This document shows, piece after piece, positions 13,481 through 15,684 of a DNA stretch of 64,000 bases. A model generated the notes under the pieces. The model was given only the letters and a program-made list of their open reading frames with translations. It had not been told where the DNA came from and did no database searches. Every line of letters begins with the position of its first letter. Positions within the stretch are counted from its first letter, which is position 1. The DNA is from Octopus sinensis (taxonomy: Eukaryota): positions 8,866,001 through 8,930,000 of the forward strand of contig NC_043010.1 in NCBI RefSeq assembly GCF_006345805.1. The letters are read 5' to 3'. The translations under genes and the position numbers were made by a program.

Positions 13481-13599
13481 TAAAATAAAAAAAATCATAT
13501 TGATAAAACTTGTCTCCAAATTGTTATAGCTGTCCCCCAGAGATAACAATATCACAGTGAAAGAACTCAATAAACATGCAGAAGTACAATAACCTATAT

Positions 13600-13771
13600 A
13601 GGCGCAGGAGTGGCTGTGTGGTAAGTAACTTGCTAACCAACCACATGGTTCCAGGTTCAGTCCCACTGCGTGGCACCTTGGGCAAGTGTCTTCTGCTATA
13701 GCCCCGGGCCGACCAATGCCTTGTGAGTGGATTTGGTAGACAGAAACTGAAAGAAGCCTGTCGTATATATG

Positions 13772-13808
<37 letters not shown>

Positions 13809-14025
13809 TTGTGTGTCTGTGTTTGTCCCCCTAGCATTGCTTGACAACCGATGCTGGTGTGTTTACGTCCCCATAACTTAGTGGTTCGGCAAAACAGACC
13901 GATAGAATAAGTACTGGGCTCACAAAGAATAAGTCCCGGGGTCGATTTGCTCGACTAATGGCGGTGCTCCAGCATGGCCGCTATCAAATAACTGAAACAA
14001 GTAAAAGAGTAAAAGAGTAAAGAGT
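13600..14025 (+). mobile_element. SINE family B, full length
   Basis: AGGCGCAGGAGTGGCTGTGTGGTAAG..GGTTCAGTCCCA..; internal microsatellite; (GTAAAAGA)n tail. Confidence 0.92.
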
Positions 14026-14104
14026 ATCTGTTTGCATTGGGACTGTGAAAGGAGCCAAAAAGATTCATTGACATGATTATCAGGAAAACCAAGCTTAAAG
14101 ATCA

Positions 14105-14860
14105 TAAAATATATTTGCCAACTAAATGTGGCAGTCCCATAGAGGACGAAGTTACTGTTGTTTTTAGCCTCAGGAAGACATACCATCCAGCTGGCTAATG
14201 ACACACTGTGTCCGATTGGTACTTGCAAGGGGAGGTCACCGCTCCCATCTCTGGCTTTACGTGATACACACGCACTCAGGTTTCTGGATAGTTACCTGTC
14301 TTCAGTGTGTGATAATCACCAGCTAGTGACAGAAACTCATTCCACTTGAAAAATACTACGCTTTTTCCAGCAGCAAATTGTCGCTGATCTTAAAAATGGA
14401 GAAATAAGCTATATCAAATCTCTGAGCGAGAGGTAAACAGTAACAGTATGGAATTGTAAAATATATTTGCCGACTAAATGTGGCAGTCCCATAGAGGACG
14501 AAGTTACTGTTGTTTTTAGCCTCAGGAAGACATACCATCCAGCTGGCTAATGACACACTGTGTCCGATTGGTACTTGCAAGGGGAGGTCACCATTCCCAT
14601 CTCTGGCTTTACGTGATACACACGCACTCGGGTTTCTGAGTAGTTACCTGTCTTCAGTGTGTGATAATCACCAGCTAGTGACAGAAACTCATTCCACTTG
14701 AAAAATACTACGCTTTTTCCAGCAGCAAATTGTCGCTGATCTTAAAAATGGAGAAATAAGCTATATCAAATCTCTGAGCGAGAGGTAAACAGTAACAGTA
14801 TGGAATTGTAAAATATATTTGCCAACTAAATGTGGCAGTCCCATAGAGGACGATGTTACT
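14105..14860 (+). repeat. Tandem repeat, 352-bp unit x about 2.15, highly structured
   Basis: ATATTTGCC begins at 14111, 14463 and 14815; 6 substitutions between the two full copies. Confidence 0.95.
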
Positions 14861-15139
14861 ACTTATAGAAATACTGAAAAATAATCTCTTTAAATTCCAT
14901 GGTTTATGGGATTGTTATCGAGCACTCTAATGTACATGTGCATAGGCACCTCAGAAATAACTCTTCTGAAGAAAGAAAACAGTAAGAGGATCCACCCTAC
15001 AAGGAAGAGGGCCCAAAAGCAGTTTTGTTCTGCGATCCTACTTACAAGGGCTTGTGCTGCAGCCCTGAAAGCTGTAAGGGGATATGGCATTATTTTTCAG
15101 TGATTCATTAGATCATAGTTCTAATACCTCATCTCTTTT

Positions 15140-15500
15140 TTTTTACTTGTTTCAGTCATTTGATTGTGGCCATGCAGGAGCACCACCTTTAGTCAAGCTA
15201 ATCGACCCCAGGACTTGTTCTTTGTAAGCCTAGTATTTATTCCATCGGTTTCTTTTGCCGAACTACTAAGTTACAGGGACGTAAACACACCAGCATCGGT
15301 TGTCGAGTGATGTTGGGGGACAAACACAAACACACACACACACATATATATGATGGGCTTCTTTCAGTTTCCGTCTACCAAATCCACTCAGAGGGCTTTT
15401 GTCAGCCTGAGGCTATAGTAAAGACACTTGCCCAAGGTGCCACACAGTGGTACTGAACCCAGAACCATGGGGTTCGTAAGCAAGCTACTTACCACACAGC
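15140..15500 (-). mobile_element. SINE family B
   Basis: Homology to family B. Confidence 0.85.
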
Positions 15501-15684
15501 CGGATCTTAAATGCTCACAAAGATGAAGCATTTATGAAATGTTCATGAGATGAGAGACATGGAAAGACAGACACCATTTTTCTCAACCATTTTTTATACC
15601 TTTGCTTCTCATTTTACTGGGATTCACCCTCCTAACCATTTAATGTTAAAAATATCCTATTCTATTTTTTCTTAAATAAAAAAA

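Follow-up and report, generated by a model that had tools for sequence, protein, structure and literature searches.

The 352-bp tandem repeat in a 64,000-nucleotide stretch of Octopus sinensis DNA (the window, by which the whole of the analysed stretch is meant) is very probably an aged copy of a dispersed, non-coding family of 352-358-nt units with a type I hammerhead motif on the minus strand. The family is likely a non-LTR retrozyme, likely inserted by a Penelope-type reverse transcriptase (RT) and endonuclease, and the second unit of the window locus is likely a recent local duplication, a reading drawn from sequence comparison. It is an added member of a known retrozyme class and brings no new ribozyme; both the class and its link to Penelope have already been published. 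The window locus itself is predicted to be dead and inactive, and matters little. What the family offers is a directly visible Penelope insertion footprint, found beside a young, intact candidate helper, together with a covariation-supported structure of the whole unit given by three subfamilies. Earlier papers, as far as their available text goes, propose Penelope as the mover of retrozymes from co-occurrence and homology to pseudo-LTRs (pLTRs) only.

Metazoan non-LTR retrozymes have been described from coral, mussel (350-390 bp) and axolotl (330/350 bp) by Cervera and de la Pena (2020, PMC7229834). In the available portion of that report, their retrozymes resemble the octopus family in the non-coding unit of about 350 bp with a GC content under 50%, in the single type I hammerhead per unit with a short helix III, and in the highly self-paired predicted circle and the co-existing Penelope-like elements (PLEs). 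The octopus family differs in its arrays of mostly 1-2 units with inverted arms, whereas theirs are long tandem arrays, and in that no target duplication is seen, the family is known from sequence alone and the window copy is predicted to be dead. PLEs were named a strong candidate for the retrozyme helper in the same report and likewise in a review (PMC7761336), again in the parts available. Li, Clavereau and Pollet (bioRxiv 10.64898/2026.07.22.740005), in the available part of their preprint, treated retrozymes as non-autonomous PLE derivatives tied to pLTRs and invoked unequal crossover for their local growth. The helper and the mode of local growth proposed here are the same as theirs; their evidence, in that part, consists of co-occurrence and pLTR homology in vertebrates, whereas for the octopus family the evidence is the insertion footprint, with no homology to pLTRs found. 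No published description of the family was found in the literature, and supplements and repeat libraries may list it.

The window array and its dispersed family

Tandem Repeats Finder returned a tandem at 14105-14860 with a period of 352, 2.1 copies and 98% identity, confirming the 352-bp x 2.15 layout of the initial annotation. The true span of the element is wider than the array first noted: the whole insertion runs from 14101 to 14861 in minus-strand RNA sense, with its 3' end at 14101 and a truncated 5' end at about 14860-14861. It comprises, all on the minus strand, unit copy 1 (14105-14456, 352 bp), which belongs to old subfamily A and lies about 10% from the family majority; unit copy 2 (14457-14808, 352 bp), which has six differences from copy 1 and is likely the product of local duplication; and a third partial unit of 52 nt (14809-14860), the original 5'-truncated overhang, with the ancestral base at 14854. 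The six differences claimed between the two full copies are exact, namely five A/G and one C/T. The claim that the unit is non-coding also holds, the longest ATG-started frame in the concatemer being 27 aa; longest ATG frames of 27 and 39 aa and GC contents of 45% and 43% agree with the absence of a protein-coding frame and the GC content under 50% expected of retrozymes.

The window insertion has neither a (TA)n flank nor an inverted arm, and no target-site duplication is visible at the locus; elsewhere in the family any such duplication would be masked by the (TA)n flanks. A search for Pol III A and B boxes and an octamer found none, and no LTR-like layout appears in the locus maps of family copies. 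The array is flanked by a SINE-like repeat (13596-14025 and 15141-15501) that is about 430 bp long, has a TA/TG core and gives 20 matches within the window.

The unit is not confined to a single locus, in keeping with the mobile element first suspected: 90 matches on many contigs of its own genome were obtained from the best 40 of 2,155 first-look candidates. Among the matches listed (best 40 of 2,155 candidates scored), the closest other copy is 85% alike, and the 756-bp query likewise found no closer copy among the matches listed. With its tandem units of 352-358 bp on many contigs, the family falls within the 150-450 bp of dispersed tandem retrozymes. In a tree of 101 near-full units, three groups were distinguished, with two units of locus L045 left out of them: the old group A (42 units including those of the window, median 9.7% from their own majority), the old group B (30 units, median 9.0%) and the young group Y (27 units, median 1.5%), the copies of which are 95-98% alike. 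Groups A and B are 93% alike, and Y is 72-73% alike with either. Arrays consist mostly of 1-2 units, the longest seen holding about five; trimers were seen, and group Y includes a 3.2-unit array with a period of 352. Arrays of three to about five units are strictly periodic with no other sequence inside. At L038:1361-3338, an old array of about five units with an inverted arm, the units of which are 17-23% apart, likely represents an original multi-round insertion of subfamily B.

A minus-strand hammerhead within a structured unit

The initial annotation could fit no hammerhead and allowed for an unrecognised self-cleaving motif; the family nevertheless carries an ordinary type I hammerhead on the minus strand, at 14261-14319 in copy 1 and 14613-14671 in copy 2. 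Read in the minus sense, the family order is stem I, CUGAAGA, stem II, GAAA, a short palindromic stem III, GUC and stem I again, with stem II comprising 3-4 pairs closed by a loop of 4-6 nt. Both window motifs are broken in the same manner: copy 1 has CUGAAGA at 14299-14305, GAAA at 14281-14284 and the triplet GUG at 14273-14275, and copy 2 has the corresponding core at 14651-14657, GAAA at 14633-14636 and GUG at 14625-14627. A GUG triplet is not cut by hammerheads, which follow the NUH rule. The window hammerheads also bear A.C mismatches at the first pair of stem I and at one stem II pair. The CACGCACT/AGTGTGTG helix listed in the initial annotation is hammerhead stem I read on the opposite strand. 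Of the three unit-to-unit differences assigned to loops there, two need reassigning, being located on the minus strand in hammerhead stem II as G-U pairs.

A strict check for CUGANGA, GAAA, a UH core and stems I-III in type I order left intact-looking motifs in 21 of the 27 young units, in 14 of 74 old units and in neither of the two window units, and a looser descriptor gave no match in 20,000 dinucleotide shuffles. In 27 old sequences, the hammerhead cells are paired in 88.5% of cases against 10.7-59.6% with slid partners; covariation within these old, decaying copies is not above shuffles. Across the subfamilies, the hammerhead core varies only at its free position (A, G or U), and both sides of stems I and II have changed. 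At the base of stem II, A and B read C.A, and Y reads A-U, U.U or G.U; the C.A of the old subfamilies may weaken cleavage. An imperfect helix II base is shared with the axolotl Amex2 motif, where U.U was reported in the available text of Cervera and de la Pena (PMC7229834). An exact 33-letter hammerhead motif gave only two matches, as expected for an old subfamily. Rfam, with E up to 10, returned no hammerhead or other ribozyme family for the window array, seven old loci or one young intact copy, and nothing at all in the window array, so the type I assignment rests on the descriptor and on covariation. In the giant squid, 235 Rfam hammerhead matches have been reported (PMC6962438, in the part available). 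An HDV-like or type III hammerhead reading of the plus-strand GUCC/GGAC-GAAG segment was considered by eye and rejected; its spacing is wrong, and the base after the GAA-like letters is a private change where the family reads otherwise. Two intact-looking hammerheads one unit apart occur in only 2 of 27 young loci, which suggests that source loci are few among those seen.

The linear fold of the window unit (z -1.31 on the plus strand, -1.45 on the minus strand) does not place this copy clearly above shuffles, and its circular fold gave z -1.79 (plus) and -2.71 (minus) with 40 shuffles each. As circles, also against 40 shuffles, the old majority reached z -5.88 in the ribozyme sense and -6.18 in the antisense, and a natural young unit -7.71 and -6.02; intact units thus form the highly self-paired predicted circle characteristic of retrozymes. 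The consensus fold of the three subfamily majorities contains 107 pairs with an energy of -107.1 on the minus strand, closes across the ends of the unit as a circle and forms a long rod tipped by the hammerhead. Fifteen of the 107 pairs changed on both sides between subfamilies and 13 are broken in some row, compared with 5.5 +/- 2.0 two-sided pairs (maximum 11) in 40 column-shuffle controls, a comparison based on three majorities of which two (A and B) are 93% alike and on a consensus fold that rewards covariation. The antisense (plus) consensus has an energy of -95.9 with 16 two-sided changes. The subfamily consensus being better on the minus strand, the asserted specificity of the fold for the plus strand does not stand. 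The helices first listed are real features of the family; being symmetric, they give no evidence of strand. The underlying idea of a structured mobile RNA of retrozyme type is upheld by the dispersal of the units, by intact units folding far above shuffles and by covariation between subfamilies.

Insertion footprint and a candidate Penelope helper

In the ribozyme sense, the 3' ends of the copies fall at two AT-rich spots, designated the short and the long site, and the fixed ends are 3' ends only when read on the minus strand. Both the query ends and the use of the best 40 of about 2,000 candidates per search bias the following counts: in the old set (44 loci after 17 refetched or duplicate loci were removed), two outward-facing 3' ends were found at 20 loci, the 64 ends dividing into 27 short, 16 long and 21 other, and 8 of the 20 inverted pairs joining one short with one long end; in the young set (27 loci after the removal of three duplicates), 16 loci are inverted in this way, the 43 ends divide into 14 short, 27 long and 2 other, and 13 of the 16 inverted pairs join short with long, the sites being separated by 43-46 nt. 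Among the ends, 27 of the 64 old and 31 of the 43 young are followed by a TA repeat, against 4.9% of random flank positions. The window 3' end at 14101 is the short fixed end, a junction class shared by the 27 short-site ends of the old subfamilies. An inverted 5'-truncated copy, a one-ended tail and a (TA)n target are all present in the family and absent from the window copy.

This arrangement closely follows that of endonuclease PLEs, for which the available text of Craig et al. (2021, PMC8557442) describes 5' truncation, partial tandems, an inverted 5' copy, a one-ended tail of 30-40 bp and (TA)n targets. The family shares the 5' truncation, partial tandems, inverted 5' copies and (TA)n targets, and its one-ended extension measures 43-46 nt against the 30-40 bp of PLEs; unlike endonuclease-bearing PLEs, the unit has no RT or GIY-YIG ORF.

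Young elements with RT and GIY-YIG are present in the genome. One Penelope-like family, represented by L088:2245-4569 on the minus strand with members in L092-L121, has a 775-aa frame with RT and GIY-YIG domains, and the best 40 of its 1,134 candidates are 99-100% alike. Its copies terminate in (TA)n at either of two sites, separated by up to 43 nt: among 32 mapped ends, 9 lie at the short and 18 at the long site, 3 continue into a tandem copy, 1 is cut off where the locus stops and 1 stops earlier. For 8 of the 18 long-site ends, the match extends across a non-TA base as far as 43 nt beyond, and the others blur into the TA run. Its 3' end also displays a variant hammerhead with a CCGA core start and a palindromic stem III, which occurs 31 times in the loci. 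A second young Penelope-like family (L082:674-4374, plus strand) has a 479-aa upstream frame, a 781-aa frame with RT and GIY-YIG, and a tandem period of about 5.9 kb; the descriptor found no hammerhead in it. A comparison of the unit with 60 PLE loci revealed no homology beyond one nested unit, and neither of the two young autonomous families examined matches the unit in sequence.

It is conceivable, though doubtful, that the young subfamily is active as a retrozyme and that a single identifiable young Penelope family in this genome copies it in trans. The two have no sequence in common, but each has two 3' ends spaced about 43 nt and (TA)n as its target; this 43-nt match to the L088-type family stands without a specificity control, since the L082 family ends within a TA run. 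If this reading is true, the Penelope enzyme would choose its passenger by the shape or circularity of the RNA, and unit and enzyme together would offer an in vitro system, ready to use, for retrozyme integration and for the origin of the Penelope tail.

By analogy with the known class, transcripts would arise from multi-unit loci that hold two intact hammerheads, cut themselves to unit length and circularise. A Penelope enzyme, presumed from the observed footprint, would use its GIY-YIG nuclease to nick (TA)n DNA, and its RT would prime at either of the two AT-rich RNA spots, copying more than one unit and often adding an inverted, 5'-truncated second arm. A TA tract immediately upstream of one Penelope element holds an inserted young unit (L088:5436-5772), to the 5' end of which an internal piece of 21 nt has jumped. 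Several Penelope copies adjoin members of a different hammerhead family, which has a stem II of about 54 nt (L088:5850-5930 on the minus strand; L118 and L120).

Origin of the second unit and competing explanations

The two full window units are only 1.7% apart (6/352), yet 32 derived changes relative to the family majority are common to both; at the other old tandem loci (n = 19, stretches of at least 100 nt), units are 7-26% apart. The third partial unit equals copy 1 at unit position 16 and keeps the family base at 14854 (position 46), where both full units are derived. If the insertion first comprised 1.15 units, unequal exchange between its terminal repeats would produce exactly this pattern of shared changes. 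The second unit therefore likely arose when an old 1.15-unit insertion was recently duplicated in place, which fits better than the read-around of a circle first suggested by the 2.15-mer. Less easily fitted is the single-base difference between the two terminal 52-nt pieces of the array, since 10% decay predicts more. In the proposed sequence of events, 1.15 units would have been inserted and then have decayed by about 10%, ribozyme included, the decay being observed, and unequal exchange between the terminal direct repeats of about 55 nt would have extended the array to 2.15 units, as the shared changes suggest.

That a single passage of reverse transcriptase round a circle, itself made from a copy that had already decayed, instead wrote all 2.15 units is very improbable, although the more-than-unit layout and the 98% likeness of the units would suit it, as would the young subfamily, where parts within a locus are 2.0% apart against 2.9% between loci. 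Both window ribozymes are broken identically, so the template would have been unable to cut itself; no source copy above 85% appears among the matches listed; 11 of 32 CpG positions have decayed in both full units; and, had one circle served as template, all three units would carry the derived base at 14854. Local duplication is preferred over this single event. A somewhat less improbable, still unlikely, explanation concerns the family as a whole, in which the unit would be the pLTR of an autonomous Penelope element outside the sampled loci and the copies 5'-truncated stumps of it, not products of a free circular RNA. Autonomous PLEs leave the same insertion footprint, frog retrozymes are related to pLTRs in the available part of the preprint (bioRxiv 10.64898/2026.07.22.740005), and the view of the genome is limited to the best 40 candidates per search. 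Such stumps are, however, hard to reconcile with the strict periodicity of the arrays of three to about five units and with a unit fold that closes across its own ends. The unit contains neither the RT plus GIY-YIG ORF of an autonomous PLE nor any common 5' extension, the 35 free 5' flanks sharing just scattered host repeats at varying offsets (in seven flanks the window's own SINE-like repeat). Only 1 of the 60 PLE loci holds a unit, in opposite orientation inside a TA tract.

The plus-strand circular RNA of the initial annotation, with an unrecognised self-cleaving motif and ADAR-edited templates, is hardly credible as a rival to the minus-strand retrozyme. Its helices are real and the family is structured, and Watson-Crick stems read equally well on both strands, as the 16 two-sided changes of the plus fold illustrate. 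What speaks for the minus strand is the hammerhead there, with a core invariant bar its free position across subfamilies 73% alike, together with fixed ends that are 3' ends in that sense only. Editing by ADAR was put forward to account for the A/G bias. Polarised on the family majority and read on the plus strand, the six differences become four G>A, one C>T and one A>G, with two at CpG and one site near-tied (14 to 12). The window units have as many A>G as T>C changes (5-6 each) and show no ADAR signature; over the 99 units of the subfamilies the two are near equal, one unit having 8 A>G changes. ADAR is not needed. When four assembled contig sets, the RNA status of which is a guess, were compared with an old copy, one 50-nt part of that copy was very deep in all four.
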